Source of the DNA: a virus
Taxonomy: Duplodnaviria; Caudoviricetes
Virus record (IMG/VR): IMGVR_UViG_3300021400_000447
Location: 17,403-81,402 of that record
Strand: one strand, 5' to 3'
Length of the DNA: 64,000 bases
Shown: piece by piece, positions 16,186 to 32,361 of the stretch
How the letters are laid out: every line of letters starts with the position of its first letter
Numbering within the stretch: the stretch's first letter is position 1
The notes under the pieces: model-generated
The model's database searches: none
What the model saw: the letters and a program-made list of their open reading frames with translations, nothing else
What the model was told of the DNA's origin: nothing
Translations under genes and position numbers: made by a program

Positions 16186-18191
16186 TGGCGATTGATATAA
16201 TTGATGTTATATTAGGACGCGCATTGTCTTCAACCGGCCAGATAGATACATATGCTGCAAAGGCAGCCAAAGCAGCGAAGGACGCTACTGCTGCGGCAAC
16301 AAACGCGCAAACAGCAGTAACTAATATAACAACTATAACTGAAGAAACACAAGCAAATAATGAACTTGCGCAGCAAACTGTAACACAAGTACAGACTGCA
16401 TTGCAGGATTTGCAAAACGCAATTGATTCTATGGAATCTCCACAGATAGACATAGCCGCGGTTCAAGAAGAGATAAAGAAAATTTATTTCTACGAATTAA
16501 CGCACAATTATGGCACATCCGCGACCGGCACAGATTATTTTATTGTCTATCCAGATGGAGAAGAAGATGGACTTTTTTCTACAAAATTATACAAACAAAC
16601 AGGCCAGAATACCGATGCACCAATGACGCAAAAGGCAGTAACAGACGCAATATCTTCTGAAATTAATGTTGCAATTACTAACCTTTCTAACACAATTAAT
16701 CAGCGTATCAATAATCTTGTTATTGAAGGCGGTACTGGTTCTATTAATCTTGGTATGGATAATGAAGGCCATTTGATTATTGTAGGCCCAGATGGACAGC
16801 CAATTGCGGCATCCTCCACAGAAGAAGAATTGATAGAGGCTTTAGTAAAGTCTGGTTCTTATCACTTGAAAGGTAGTGTAGGCGTAGAGAATGACTATGA
16901 AAATAAAGTTACCCTTCGTTCACAGGATGCGCTAACCGATGGTTCATTAACTGAAGTCTTTGATGCGCTACCAATGTTTGGAGGCAGAAAGCGTTGCAAT
17001 GTAGATGATAACGGACAAATTACTGCCTTTTATGGTGACGCAAATTACGCTGAAGATGGCAGTAATGGTTAGGTTATGGTATATCAACCTAAATTCTACT
17101 ATTCTCGCGTTATTATTAAGTCTACATCTTCTACAAATGGTACAGCTATTCGTAAGGAAGCATTAATCTTAACACCCACAAAGCAAGGGCCAAATTTCAA
17201 AATCCATCCGCTATTTATAAATGAAGATGGAGAAGAAGTAGAATATGTGCTACTTGCCGCATATGATGGCTGTGTATATGATGCTTCTGACTCCGCTTAT
17301 GCAACAACATCTGCGCTTACTATTGATTATGCCAACGATAAACTTTCTTCTATTGCCGGCGCAAAACCAATTACAGGCGTTTATGGTAGCGGGTTAACCA
17401 TGACAAACGCAGAACAGCTCGCGCGCAATCGTGGCGCTGGATGGCACATCACCAATCTTGCGGCAGAAAGTGCACAATAGATGCTTATGATGACAGAATT
17501 TGGCTCACCTAACGGACAATTCTCATTAGAGCGCGGCATTGTTGACATCACAAGCGTAAGCGGGAAAAACTGTACATCCTTAACTGGCTCTACCAATATC
17601 CTTGGAAATGCAACTGGTGCAGCAGAAGTAACAACAAATGAGGCGGGTGGTAATGTACAAGATTACACTGTTGATGGTAAGCGCGCGATTAGCTATCGTG
17701 GAGTAGAAAATCCATGGGGTAACATTTGGCGTTATGTTGGAGGAACATTTATTTCCGGTCATGGCGCATCTAATGGCGGCCATCCATATGTATGTAAGAA
17801 TTTTAACTATAATTTTAGTGAAGATTCTGAAGATTTTGATCAGCTTCCATTTGTCCTTCCAGCCGCACATACATGGATTTATGCGCTAGCAGATTGCGGA
17901 GCAGATTATGACTGGGTTTATATGCCGATTGAGTGCTCTAGCAACCTTGCCAACAGTGCGTTACCTTTTGGTGACAATCTATGGACTTCACCAAGTCTAA
18001 ATGGCGTAAATTCTTGCTTGGCTGGCGGTAGTTGGGGCAGCGCAGAAAATGCTGGTATGTTCTACTATGGATGCGATATGGGTATTAATGAATCTGGTAA
18101 TTCAAGTGGTGCAAAGTTAATGTTCATTCCTCACAAAGATTCTATTTATCAAGCAAATTATACTAAATGGCAAGCATTAGCAGGAGGTTGA
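16185..18191 (+). CDS. Tail protein with C-terminal C-type-lectin (Mtd/FGE-like) fold
   Basis: ORFs 16185, 17076 and 17481 join through 2 TAG; YRGVENPWGNIW and GGSW...AG.F...G.KL motifs; ends TGA. Confidence 0.7.
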
Positions 18192-19945: not shown

Positions 19946-19958
19946 AAATATAGACAGT

Positions 19959-20044
19959 GGGGAGGTACCCAAGTGGCCGAAGGGAGCGACCTACTAAGTC
20001 GCCAGCGCCTCACGGCGGCGTGGGTTCGAATCCCACCCTCCCCG
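19959..20044 (+). tRNA. tRNA-Ser, unusual anticodon ACT
   Basis: Acceptor GGGGAGG/CCTCCCC; anticodon arm GCGAC-CT ACT AA-GTCGC; long variable arm; G73. Confidence 0.85.
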
Positions 20045-20066
20045 TTGAAAAGAAAGGAGCCATACT

Positions 20067-22308: not shown

Positions 22309-22434
22309 ATGCCGGATGATTTCGTAACGAATGATTCATATGACGCATATGATGCTGATTATGAAGAAGAAGAACAGACTTGGGACGAGTATTGCCGAGA
22401 ACTGGCGCGGGAAAGCGATGATTTGACAGATTAA
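22309..22434 (+). CDS. Very acidic 41-aa protein
   Basis: AAGGAG RBS just after promoter 22246; MPDDFVTNDSYDAYDADYEEEEQTWDEYCRELARESDDLTD. Confidence 0.55.
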   Translation: MPDDFVTNDSYDAYDADYEEEEQTWDEYCRELARESDDLTD

Positions 22435-22451
22435 AAAAATTATGATATAAT
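22423..22451 (+). promoter_or_regulatory. Sigma-A promoter driving the leader and suppressor tRNA
   Basis: TTGACA-17 nt-TATAAT. Confidence 0.8.
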
Positions 22452-22457
22452 TTATTA

Positions 22458-22712
22458 TGGGCTTGGGATAACTTTGGACACAGCTTATCCTGCCTAAAAT
22501 TAACAGGTGTTACAGAGCCACCTTTAAAGCCCTGGCTTCTGGGCGCAATCCCAAAAATCTACGACCGTTAACACGGATTTAGCACTTCAACTACCACCGG
22601 CACGAAATCCGCCGCGAAAGCGAACGAGTATGCTTGGTTTAACAAGCGGGCGGCTCAGTAGTGATATGTGGCTTAGCGGAAAACGGTATATAAAGAAGCG
22701 AAGTAAAGTGCA
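22458..22712 (+). ncRNA. Structured leader/ncRNA upstream of the suppressor tRNA
   Basis: Hairpins GGATAA/TTATCC, CGGATTT/AAATCCG, GCCC/GGGC; no ORF. Confidence 0.4.
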
Positions 22713-22717
22713 ATTGT

Positions 22718-22982
22718 AGCCCCTTAGTTCAACGGTAGAACACCGGTCTCTAGTCTTAATTTGGAGCTTCATATGGGGACATATGAATGAAAACGCCGCT
22801 AATTCGGAGAAAGCTTAACTGCCAACCCCGAGCAAGGAGAAATCCGTGTGTAGAGACTTTACACGGCGCATCTAGAACAGATGAAGATAAAGTCCGGACC
22901 ACAATGCAAAAGCAATGCGTGTGAAGAAAACCGTTATATCCCTCTGAAGGAGGTAGTCTGGGTTCGAATCCCAGAGGGGCCA
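22718..22982 (+). tRNA. Amber suppressor tRNA (anticodon CTA) interrupted by a group I intron; exons 22718-22751 and 22927-22982
   Basis: Joined exons give AGCCCCT-TA-GTTC AACGGTA GAAC-A-CCGGT CT CT|A AA ACCGT-23 nt arm-CTGGG TTCGAAT CCCAG-AGGGGCC-A. Mismatches at 1:72 and 27:43. Confidence 0.85.
22752..22926 (+). mobile_element. Compact group I intron (IC-type core, 175 nt, no ORF)
   Basis: P1 CTCT|AG/TTGGAG with U.G at the splice site; P2 TTCATATG-GGGA-CATATGAA; P3 CGCCG/CGGCG; AATTCGGAGAAA..CAACCCCGAGC (P4-P6); AGAGACT and AAGATAAAGTC (P7); P8 CATCT/AGATG; terminal G. Confidence 0.85.
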
Positions 22983-23704: not shown

Positions 23705-24060
23705 ACCCAAGTAAAACGGGAATTGACTCGTTATAACCAGCCAATTTTAATTGGCGGCCTGATGAACGTTCGACTCGTTCGTTGCTTAAGTCGGTCTGAG
23801 GGCGGAACTGGCATCCGCCGCCTAAATGGAGATACAGGATTGTCACCCTGTCTACTTAAGCAAGTAGTTTAATGGCTAAAACCGTAGGCGACGTGGCGCG
23901 GACACTGGTTTGGGTGAGGTTTCTGCTATGACCAAAAAGACATAAAATATAGCAGCAATGTGTGCTTATGACGGTATTGTTACGTTGCGGAGCAATACTT
24001 GAGGCTTCATAGCAGTTAGCGTTAATCTGTGCGCAACAGTTAAAAAACGCATTTTGTGTT
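23705..24060 (+). ncRNA. Candidate structured non-coding RNA of about 350 nt
   Basis: TTGCTTAAGT 23782-23791 pairs with ACTTAAGCAA 23854-23863, enclosing hairpins GGCGGA/TCCGCC and ACAGG/CCTGT. Confidence 0.45.
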
Positions 24061-25670: not shown

Positions 25671-28600
25671 GTGGAAGAAATGAGACTTATTGATGCTGAC
25701 GCGCTGTTAGAGAAAATGAAACACAGAAAAGAGTATGTCGGCAGACCGTCCGACCCGGTGTGCCTCGTTGAGGATGCGCCCGCCGTTGCAGAATGGATAA
25801 ACGTAAAGGACAGGACGCCGAAGATTGGACAAATGTGCCTTATCTGGGATGGGAAGAATGTGAAGGCTGGGGTTCATCTTTCGTGCGGCGTGTGGAGCGT
25901 TTCAAACACGCTCGAATACCCTGAATTTTGGATGCCACTACTGCTTGAGCCTCCGAAGGAGATGAGTAGAGATGCGACTAATTGATGCGGACACGCTAAA
26001 AGAAATCATTGGTGAATGTCCGGAAAACTGGACAGATTCGCCAGAAGAAGTTGAAGCATTTAATATGTGGCATCGTATTATGGATGACATAGATTCTACT
26101 CCCACCGTGAAACCAGATTTTTGGATTAGCGTTGAGGAGCGCTTGCCTGATGACAGCATGGAAGTCCTTGTCTTACTAAAAATAAAAGATGTTCTTGTCC
26201 CAGACATGGGTGTATTAATAAGCGGCAATTGGTGGAGTACAATGTCTTACAATATGATGGTTGGTGACCCACTATTCTGGGCTGAGATTCCTCGCGGCCC
26301 TGATAATTACAAGTGATACACAGATGTGGAGGTAGACGGAGATGCGGCTGATTGATGCAGATAAGCTAATACGTAGTATCAATAGCATATCAGTTTTGAC
26401 CGGTCTTGGCCTTCAGCCTGTAATAACAATTGCAGATGTAAAAGAATTAATTAATGCAATACCAACAGCAAGTGACTGGATTAGCGTTAAAGAAAAACTG
26501 CCTGCAACAAATGTTGAGGTGCTGGCAATGTATGTATACGATGACAAGCCTGGTGAGCGTTACGTTGAACCAACATTCTATTTTGATGATGGTAATGGTA
26601 AAGGACATTGGCACTTAGGTGATGAGCACACCTTTGGGCCTGTACGAAAAACAATAATAGCGTGGATGCCAATGCCAAAGCCGTATGAGGTGAGTTAAAA
26701 ATGGCTGAATTTGATTTTGAAAACATCATTAAAAAAGGCGTTGAGGCGGCTATCAACGAGCCTGTATACGATGGCAAGAGTATCACAGAATGGGCGGCTG
26801 TCGGCATGAAAGCGCCGCAATGGATCAACGTGGAAGATAGAGTACCAGAAGATGCGCAAGATTACATCATATGCGTTCTCGCAGGTGACGGGACGAAGCA
26901 TGTAACGATCGGAACATATGATGGGTGGCGCAAACGTTGGAATGATAAGTTCGGTGTCATATGGGTGCCTGACCGTGTGACCCATTGGATGCCATTCCCA
27001 GAACCACTAGCTTGACGCTAAAAGAATCAAATGGGAGACAGAACCATGAAAATCATTGATTTTTCCAAAAAGGGCAATATAGTGCGCTTTTATTTGGGCG
27101 CTGATGACTTGCAAGAATGGTATGGCGACGATTGGAATGATGCGCCATATGAATATAATGCAGGAAAAGTATACGATCGATTTATCGTCGGTCACAAAGA
27201 CATTGCCTTTCCGTTTGATACGTTTGTGCTTGAACCGTGTGAAGGACACGTGAATAGCAGATGGTGTAAGAATGATATGGTAACAAGACGTGTGCCATGC
27301 ATCATTGCTGTACCAAAAGAAAAGACAGAGGATAGCTGGTATGGACAGGATTTTGAGCACTGGGTTTGGACGGATGGAGTACAGCGATTTTTCTTTGGAG
27401 ATAGAATGGAACTTGATGCAGAGGATGCGAGCGAAGATGCTTGACAGGAAGAAGGTTATTAAAGGGCTAGAGTGCTGTACCAAATCACCTGACACCATAG
27501 AGTTAGAGGATTGCCGCAGATGCCAATATAGGGATGAAAAGGATTGCTCCTGTGTGGTCATGCAGGACGCTCTCGCCCTGCTGAAAGAGCAGGAGCCTGT
27601 GGAACCGAAGAAACCAATCAGCGCGGATGACCCGTTCTACGAGTGCGGCAACTGTGGAATGCCCATTGCCAGCACCATGTATCAATTCTGTCCGTATTGC
27701 GGAAGGAAGGTAGATTGGAATGTCTGACCGGGAGAAGGTTATTAAGGAACTGGAAGAATGCCTCACTGCTTCGTGCAGAGGATTCTGGACTTGTCCGTAC
27801 AGCGACAATGCGTGGGATGCCGTTAGAGAAGCGCTGGCCCTGCTGAGAGAGCATGAGCCGATTGCACCTGTGAAGGTGAATAGGTACATCGAAACTAACG
27901 AACACGGCGGCTGGTTTCCATCTGAAACTTATGATTGTGGAAATTGCGGCGCAGAATTGTGTAACAAGGCGAATTATTGTTACGTTTGTGGAAGGCCGGT
28001 GAAGTGGGATGTATCTGCTTGGCGGATGGCTATCTACACCGAGACAAGATAAGAAAGAATGAGGGCAAAGATGTGGATCCGATAAGCCATTTTAGGAACA
28101 GATTCTATTATGGAGCAAATGAAGCTCATATTCCTTATTCAGATCTTGATGAAGAAGATCTCGAAGATGAAGAGCGCGACAGGTACTATCGGGCTAAGGA
28201 GTTCATTAAAGACACGCTTGACGATCCATGCGTATCTGTCTATTTGCGAACCAACTACCAAGGTATATTTGGCAATACTATGAGTCAAACTAAGTGGGAC
28301 AACCACGATTGGAGCGTTTACGCGGAAGTTGTTGCACAAAAATCAGACGAGGAACTCGAACCTTATCTTGCGGAACTTTTTGATTGGTGCAGCTTTATCT
28401 ACGATGATGGGACGGATGCAGACGTAATTGCTGAGAGGTTGAAGAAGTTTAAGCGTACTGATGGTTTTATGTATGCTGCAAAGATGGCAATACGAAGAGC
28501 AATGAATGATAGAACGATGAACCTATCCTCGAATTTTGACGTAGGTCTTCGGTGTGCGTTTTTGCCGGGAGAATATGAAATCTTGCTTGCAGAGATTAAA

Positions 28601-30592: not shown

Positions 30593-30595
30593 TAT

Positions 30596-30668
30596 GCTCC
30601 ATTAGCCCAATGGCAGAGGCGATGCGCTTAGAACGCATACAGTGAGAGTTCGAATCCCATCGAGAGTG
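30596..30668 (+). pseudogene. Degenerate tRNA-Leu(TAG)
   Basis: Good D and anticodon arms (ATGCG-CT TAG AA-CGCAT); T stem and 3' acceptor strand do not pair. Confidence 0.55.
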
Positions 30669-30694
30669 CTGTAAAAATATTGAAGGGAAAAGAA

Positions 30695-31765: not shown

Positions 31766-32361
31766 AGGAGCATTTTCCTTAATAAATGATTGACCCAAGT
31801 GCAGATGTGCCAACCACACTGCTTGGGCTATCTGAATAACAGCCATACGTTACGGCCCGGGATACTAGGCACACGCGGCCGCCGAAACAGCAATGCTAGG
31901 CGATAGGAAGAAACTTCTAATGTTAAGGATAGGCGCTTAAATATTCGCAATCAAAAGTATTATTCCTCTTGGCCACATAATAGAAAGCTCATTGAATAGG
32001 TGAGCCGAATCCAGATAAGGTGGTAGCTGGTAACTGCTGCAAACTCTGGAATTACCATAAGTGGCTAATGTCGATGAAAGCCAGAAATGGCATATAAAAG
32101 AGGTTTAAAGTAAAAGTAGGCCAATACGACATTAATTGTATGTTAACACATAAGCAAGTATGCTTAATATGATTATTGCTGAATGGTTTGGCTGAAATTT
32201 CAGGGTAAGCAATCCCTGCTATACATGGCTGTAAAGCGGGTTAAGAAAGTTACGGGGTAGCTCCTTGTGGCTCAGCTCTTAATTCTATAGTGACTGAATA
32301 TGATTGAAGAATATTATAAGTATGGCGAAGGCTGCAATCATTTGTTAAGGAAAATGCTCCT
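31766..32361 (+). ncRNA. Large (~596 nt) ornate non-coding RNA, ROOL/GOLLD-class candidate
   Basis: 27-bp terminal helix 31766-31792 with 32335-32361 (one G.U); many internal stems; own promoter; no ORF. Confidence 0.75.

Follow-up and report, generated by a model that had tools for sequence, protein, structure and literature searches.

Phage amber suppressor tRNAs with a second, anticodon-like arm as candidate synthetase identity element

How does a suppressor tRNA receive the correct amino acid when the phage encoding it brings no synthetase of its own? For recoded phages this was described as an open question (10.1101/2021.08.26.457843; this and the other papers are cited from the passages available). 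The question is raised anew by an amber suppressor tRNA gene of unusual architecture in IMGVR_UViG_3300021400_000447, an 81.4-kb IMG/VR phage record that is 46 % complete. The window, i.e., the whole stretch of 64,000 nt that was analysed (positions 17,403 to 81,402 of that record), is contained in sequencing runs of animal gut metagenomes. Its long open reading frames become joined once TAG is read as glutamine, and they match tail, virion and ligase families. The amber (CUA) tRNA gene at 22718-22982 is split between anticodon positions 35 and 36 by a 175-nt intron; ARAGORN in intron mode delimited this intron and called CUA as the anticodon (Table 1). Between the amber arm and the T arm lie 23 nt with the loop CU-CUG-AA, as claimed by a preliminary description made from the DNA letters and confirmed in the sequence. 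With a probability of about 70 %, judged from sequence comparison, such a tRNA would unite two functions in one molecule by means of two folds: the CUA arm would decode UAG and the second, anticodon-like arm would be the identity element for the synthetase.

The arrangement is not an assembly product. The spliced window tRNA is identical to an intron-less gene at another locus (L002) in 89 of 90 nt, the sole difference being the discriminator, and this identity to intron-less relatives excludes the chimera that the preliminary description had asked to be checked. Two further loci (L003, L004) carry the 23-nt arm unchanged, and a Logan contig from DNA run X1, which may be the source sample, covers 22682-22965 including both arms with 0 differences. 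In an RNA-library contig the intron is skipped (22751 is joined to 22927) and the extra arm is kept; an intron-less gene would look alike. This contig bears on the idea that the transcript is a precursor from which two ordinary tRNAs are made by arm excision and religation. Both products would be plausible tRNAs and an RNA ligase (PF09414, 20067-20732) is encoded nearby, but the intron-less RNA-library contig retains the extra arm, and a joint removing either arm was not listed in the contigs of three RNA runs and one DNA run, a weak test as contigs, not reads, were searched. We consider such a precursor hardly credible.

Relatives were sought in viral contigs, metagenomes and GTDB. The first search patterns contained the second loop; the search was repeated with no constraint other than the D, amber and T loops. 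With the arm left unspecified, the viral contigs yielded 48 loci, of which 45 formed cloverleaves, and a YUG loop (Y, C or U) was present in 45 of the 45. The metagenomes yielded at least 120 loci among the matches listed, including 105 cloverleaves, and GTDB yielded 11 loci, 4 of the two-arm type and 7 with Leu-type bodies. Failures at the cloverleaf filter amounted to 3/48 in the viral, 0/11 in the GTDB and 15/120 in the metagenome scan (among the matches listed). Ninety-two distinct amber tRNAs had an extra region of at least 19 nt. Three were set aside, L208 with its Leu-type body and the degenerate duplications L282 and L332, leaving 89 distinct two-arm amber tRNAs with an extra region of 19-27 nt; these members are related by descent, and all family counts given here overstate independent events. 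Their second triplet is CUG in 71, UUG in 16 and CCA in 2 tRNAs. Within the 87 YUG members U35' and G36' (primes denote the second arm) are invariant and 34' is C or U, which is the pattern of the glutamine anticodons. The canonical arm was called CUA by ARAGORN in 88 of 88 family members, and the acceptor branch is 7/5 in the window tRNA and in every parsed member. On this comparative evidence the two-arm amber tRNA is real, widespread and under selection.

Some matches were discarded or stand apart. In L015 what looked like a second arm for Glu (CUC) proved to be a mis-parsed ordinary tRNA-Glu, and L078 and L034 were chance matches. The four two-arm GTDB hits are in metagenome-assembled genomes (MAGs) titled Bacillota (twice), Bacilli and Nanosyncoccus; these titles were not taken as hosts, and the hits are probably binned phage contigs. 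The UUG-arm member L210 (JAUNDJ010000001.1) belongs to a Bacillota MAG bin in which two PF00749 genes (564 and 491 aa) are present. Leu-type bodies were seen in the amber tRNAs of L202, L205-L209, L212, L262, L279 and L305, several of them in Thermoguttaceae and Acidobacteriota MAGs. L282 (572-1125) and L332 are tRNA arrays in which a D-stem strand is duplicated and the CUA arm precedes a degenerate Lys-like or Ile-like arm; L282 received three CUA calls. These duplications are possibly independent origins or products of decay.

The anatomy of the second arm is constrained near the loop. Among 74 distinct arms the pairs 31'-39' and 30'-40' are present in 74 each and 29'-41' in 58, while the outer pairs 28'-42' and 26'-44' did not exceed the shuffle level. 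The 7-bp stem of the preliminary description can be drawn in the window, but it was ruled out as a conserved structure, only the inner two to three pairs being a family feature. A paired 7-nt loop centred on YUG occurs in 72 of the 74 distinct extra regions, whereas shuffling would yield 5.5. For the inner three pairs, 195 of 222 cells are Watson-Crick, compared with 32-100 in slid registers, and 23 different cores occur; this covariation, called for in the preliminary description, fixes the register of the arm. A shifted register, allowed by folding of the window tRNA, was dismissed since it is Watson-Crick in only 108 of 296 cells across the family. In the loop, U33' is found in 82 of 89 and A37' in 76 of 89 members; 7 members have C or G at 33', and 12 have a pyrimidine at 37'. 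The distance from the second triplet to the T stem is 10-12 nt in 89/89 members, that to the CUA arm 5-13 nt; in ordinary tRNAs 11-12 nt separate anticodon and T stem. These spacings fit the proposal of a tRNA-Gln body into which an amber arm was inserted after the D arm. Deletion of the CUA arm does not directly leave the clean tRNA(CUG) that had been described, as the 17-nt deletion retains 2 surplus nt on the 5' side of the second arm; once these were also removed in silico, ARAGORN assigned 78 of 88 tRNAs to Gln and 2 to Trp.

Could the second arm be a relic of a duplication or insertion, i.e., an old anticodon arm serving as structural variable arm, with identity residing in the acceptor stem and U35 of the CUA arm? 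The 27-nt class (eleven members) resembles a duplication of the 3' strand of the D stem plus an inserted arm, L282 and L332 are similar duplications with degenerate arms, and single-arm suppressors are known to become glutaminylated (PMC12636597). However, the triplet is fixed amid freely varying flanks, stem (23 cores) and acceptor stem, YUG hairpins exceed the shuffle expectation as given above, and the arms of the Leu-type amber tRNAs of the same scans are unconstrained. A relic is thus very unlikely, and covariation argues against the mere record of evolution that the preliminary description had offered as one option.

The amino acid inserted at UAG was deduced by aligning TAG-containing frames between phage records and tallying the residue that faces TAG. 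In the genome of the window TAG faces glutamine at 21 of 39 sites, and among 16 records with a YUG arm, 15 have glutamine as the most frequent residue. The pooled tally of these records (851 sites) was Gln 319, Lys 101, Glu 94, Ser 32, Leu 24, Tyr 19 and Trp 3, by which a Ser, Leu or Tyr identity was rejected. The tally of phAss-1 (Gln at 3 of 22 sites) has too few sites to inform, and G015 offers 3 sites only. According to ARAGORN the two-arm gene is the sole amber tRNA gene in 13 of 15 records, hence the two-arm tRNA should be the UAG decoder. A different meaning was observed in G002 (IMGVR_UViG_3300021400_000126; L167), where TAG faces Glu at 39 of 73 sites and Gln at 2; its single-arm amber tRNA (C1:65805-65883) combines a Glu-like D arm with a C1-G72 pair, and G002 looks like a TAG=Glu phage.

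Which enzyme might read the second arm? A synthetase with the GlnRS/GluRS domain PF00749 is encoded in 0 of 20 two-arm phage records. In E. coli tRNA-Gln the bases at 2-71, 3-70 and 73 are G2-C71, G3-C70 and G73. Among 86 relatives of the window tRNA G2-C71 is present in 72, G3-C70 in 28 and G73 in 68; the window tRNA has G2-C71 as well, together with C3-G70 and A73, and its A1 is unpaired with C72. U35 and G36 are determinants for GlnRS (PMC9976931, 'Glutamine identity'), and the YUG triplet is absent from the decoding arm, which is CUA, and present only in the second arm. Amidotransferases require U1-A72 (PMC9976931). The 1:72 position is weak or unpaired in almost all members, and U1-A72 was found in 36 of 86 and is absent in the window (A1.C72). 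The invariant G36' and the limited occurrence of U1-A72 point to GlnRS rather than to a non-discriminating GluRS with GatCAB as the enzyme that would read the second arm. Many CUA arms of two-arm tRNAs are one base away from the phages' own Trp anticodon arms, and the E. coli amber suppressor tRNA-Trp is charged with Gln (PMC9976931); a second, cognate triplet would thus settle a real ambiguity.

Other readers of an anticodon have to be considered. The second arm may bind a partner other than a synthetase, as a decoy for an anticodon nuclease, as a substrate for a modification enzyme or as a ligand of a T-box. Any reader of anticodons would select for a YUG loop, and the presence of an RNA ligase gene in the tRNA array is a hint that tRNAs are damaged and repaired. 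Such a partner does not account for a triplet that follows the amino acid of TAG and changes in concert with the acceptor stem, nor for its constant distance from the T stem. T-boxes are mainly a feature of Bacillota, whereas the arm is carried also by phages without a Shine-Dalgarno (SD) signal (Bacteroidota-like; 3 of 16 records). A non-synthetase partner is quite unlikely. With an SD signal in the other 13 records, the arm is not confined to SD-using, Bacillota-like phages, a restriction that was thereby ruled out; the distribution suggests more than one host group and an exchange of the arm between phages.

A change of the second triplet in one phage clade bears on the link between arm and amino acid. 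Two tRNAs from different samples and with different stems, L309 and L324, have a CCA arm. Both possess A1-U72, G2-C71, G4-C69, G5-C68 and G73, and acceptor stem and G73 match the bacterial tryptophan identity set (PMC9976931). On each contig, a gene of 171 aa contains an in-frame TAG at a column that among 120 homologues holds Trp in 113, Gln in 5 and a gap in 2. In the database homologues 24 of 600 cells in Trp columns hold Gln, compared with 8 of about 9,500 other conserved cells, and two homologues have Gln at all five Trp columns. Protein P0244 is identical to the L309 protein once the TAG is rendered as Gln, and six of seven short members end just before a Trp column (L309 and L324 probably account for two of the six). 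This identity, the excess of Gln at Trp columns and the truncations reveal the database Gln as the reading of TAG by a gene caller, and with Gln as an artefact the alignments indicate that the CCA-arm clade reads TAG as tryptophan; its database proteins carry Gln or are truncated. As the triplet switches from a Gln to a Trp anticodon in the phage group reading UAG as Trp, the second arm appears to specify the amino acid. The suggestion that the arm acts as synthetase identity element has gained support from these comparisons, with an arm that alternates between the Gln anticodons and becomes CCA along with a Trp-type acceptor stem. Further CCA-arm members were not obtained: six matches in the viral contigs were all due to chance and the other scan had none. 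A complete genome of the clade was not found, only G001, a 54 % relative without tRNA genes, and GenBank phages had no match to the clade.

The preferred reading, a tRNA in which the second arm confers identity, can be put in terms of two folds. On the ribosome the CUA arm, in its normal place after the D arm, would decode UAG, and in this decoding fold the second arm would be carried like the variable arm of a class II tRNA. In a charging fold the second arm would stack under the D stem with the CUA arm extruded, and would show the cognate triplet to the host synthetase, YUG to GlnRS and CCA to TrpRS. The phage would gain efficient and unambiguous charging by a host enzyme that it need not encode, and a change of second triplet and acceptor stem would change the meaning of UAG. 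Charging through the second arm and the switch of folds are what we infer from the alignments. A sequence basis for the second fold is given in the 27-nt class, where the linker is able to re-form the D stem with 4 of 4 pairs (the D register was off by one for two of the eleven members).

A ribosome could, alternatively, be offered either arm, and the tRNA would then read CAG or CAA as well as UAG. The second loop is anticodon-like (U33' and A37' predominate), and with the CUA arm removed 80 of 88 members become tRNAs for Gln or Trp. The stem is, however, mostly of 2-3 bp and not of 5, the deviations at 33' and 37' suit the reading by an enzyme better than decoding, and the extruded 17-nt arm would need to fit into the A site. 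Most two-arm phages, too, hold ordinary Gln and Trp tRNAs. Dual decoding is unlikely, and the alternative fold reading CAG in the preliminary description has accordingly become less likely.

Several observations weigh against the second arm as identity element, beyond the common descent of the members. Single-arm amber tRNAs are commoner overall, with more than 120 viral loci among the matches listed, 106 of them distinct. In E. coli extract a phage tRNA(CUA) inserted Gln in 28 of 29 tested cases (PMC12636597), and as many one-arm phage amber tRNAs work, a second arm is not generally required. Two-arm phages with an additional single-arm amber tRNA exist (phAss-1, G011, G018, L025, L080); the two genes lie side by side in L359:5910-6075 (phAss-1), L025, L080 and G011. 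Since single-arm suppressors work, some beside a two-arm gene, the arm would improve or specify charging. The alternative D stem is limited to the 27-nt class and absent from the class of the window. Energy folding of the window tRNA assigned a probability of about 0.01 to the CUG-centred pairs, with a shifted register of equal energy and a minimum free energy structure that is not a cloverleaf. One TAG stands at a mostly-Trp column of NrdG in YUG-arm phAss-like phages, where G006 has Gln. The link to tryptophan within a contig consists of one shared TAG site in one protein family on two contigs of 9-10 kb, and in a second protein of the clade Gln was seen at its two Trp columns in 0 of 240 cells.

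The intron is a putative group I intron. It scored 32.4 bits (E 5.7e-8) against RF00028, below the gathering cut-off of 50 bits; a search of the gene region in Rfam at E<=10 had no match. From the sequence, the 5' splice site has a U35.G pair and the intron ends with G (22926). With these two traits and the model match it resembles the group I introns of bacterial tRNA anticodon loops (RF00028), from which it differs by its shortness, its score below the cut-off and its position within an amber anticodon. L001 holds the same intron, which is optional across the family: it was seen in the window, in L001 and in one RNA contig.

Table 1. Parts of the two-arm tRNA gene, a candidate promoter and the loci of the putative TAG=Trp clade (positions in the window unless a locus is given)
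Feature	Position	Strand	Basis or remark
Sigma-70-type promoter-like site, extended -10, 12/12 match	22423..22451	+	candidate; upstream of non-coding RNA candidate and suppressor tRNA
tRNA 5' exon: acceptor 5' strand, D arm, 5' half of CUA arm to U35	22718..22751	+	sequence; identity to L002
Putative group I intron, 175 nt, between positions 35 and 36	22752..22926	+	ARAGORN, RF00028, L001
3' half of amber arm: A36, A37, A38, positions 39-43; mismatch C27.U43	22927..22934	+	sequence; L002
23-nt extra region: 5' linker, second anticodon-like arm, 3' segment ending with U48	22935..22957	+	
Conserved core of second arm: 3-bp stem and 7-nt loop CU-CUG-AA	22939..22951	+	covariation, slid-register control
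Loop of second arm, CU-CUG-AA; triplet CUG	22942-22948; 22944-22946	+	
T arm, acceptor 3' strand, discriminator A73; CCA not encoded	22958..22982	+	sequence
Loci of the putative TAG=Trp clade	L309:1320-1832; L324:2436-2948	minus	database proteins P0121-P0255

The surroundings of the gene comprise a tRNA array, a ROOL RNA (31771-32353) and a skipping-rope RNA (23791-23858). The promoter-like site in Table 1 is the single 12/12 site among 8 found in the region, compared with 4.3 in shuffles. Directly upstream of the suppressor tRNA, 22564-22712 consists of two conserved blocks around a variable middle and recurs in the tRNA arrays at some 20 related loci; it is deeply represented in RNA-library contigs, had no Rfam match and is a probable undescribed non-coding RNA. 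The RNA ligase gene mentioned above lies inside the tRNA array. A tRNA at 19958-20045 was called Ser with the anticodon ACU, and a 75-nt tRNA-Leu(UAG) at 30595-30669 lacks a long variable arm. Putative intron-bearing Tyr and His tRNAs at 26388-26970 were dropped because they are inside coding sequence.

A description of a natural two-anticodon tRNA was not found in the literature, in agreement with the preliminary description, which knew of none; subscription journals and the supplements of PMC10607447 and PMC12636597 could hold a mention. UAG=Trp in a phage was likewise not found in print, again with supplements and subscription journals as places where a mention could exist. It seems fairly probable that these tRNAs form a natural, widespread two-anticodon class, in which decoding is split from synthetase recognition by a swappable arm and a conformational switch and by which UAG=Gln and UAG=Trp are installed with unmodified host synthetases. 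Two anticodons would be a concrete and testable answer to the question of charging for a large group of recoded phages. If true, they break the rule that one anticodon serves ribosome and synthetase, and the suppressor tRNA has a modular design, one arm picking the codon and the other the amino acid. Phages would then have installed at least two meanings of UAG, glutamine and the previously unreported tryptophan. Phages assigned to code 15 by default would include the TAG=Trp clade and the apparent TAG=Glu phage, whose database proteins would be mistranslated.

The window tRNA is an amber suppressor by membership, and its architecture fits none of the described classes found. It shares with the amber suppressors of TAG=Gln (code 15) gut phages CUA in the canonical arm, recoded structural genes and the lack of a phage synthetase (10.1101/2021.08.26.457843; PMC7886860; PMC10607447; PMC12636597). 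Those were published as ordinary tRNAs, and a long arm or a second anticodon is unmentioned in the passages found, although supplements may show one; the two-arm family member of phAss-1 (OQ749652) is annotated as tRNA-Sup-CTA, i.e., as plain suppressor. The ARAGORN label tRNA-Pyl does not fit: tRNA-Pyl has a 6-bp anticodon stem, a 3-nt variable loop and PylRS as enzyme, whereas the window tRNA has an anticodon stem of 4-5 bp, a variable region of 23 nt and TAG=Gln. Class II tRNAs (Ser, Leu, Tyr; also Sec) have an extra stem-loop between anticodon arm and T arm, too, and in tRNA-Ser the long variable arm carries identity (PMC9976931). Two-arm tRNAs differ by a Gln- or Trp-type acceptor and D arm, the region of 19-27 nt with its core of 2-3 bp and an anticodon-specific 7-nt loop at canonical spacing, where class II tRNAs use a longer stem whose shape is recognised. 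Allo-tRNAs and selC* tRNAs, some of them phage-borne or nonsense suppressors, also combine a non-canonical cloverleaf and a long arm with an identity uncoupled from the decoding anticodon (PMC5389517), but their acceptor branch is 8/4 or 9/3 and their identity Ser, Ala or Cys, while two-arm tRNAs are 7/5 and apparently derive identity from the second anticodon. The ambiguity of CUA between GlnRS and TrpRS is shared with the E. coli amber tRNA-Trp (PMC9976931) and with tRNA-Trp(CUA) of Balanophora, a plastid precedent for UAG=Trp (10.64898/2026.01.09.698701); unlike the two-arm tRNAs, both are single-arm point mutants.
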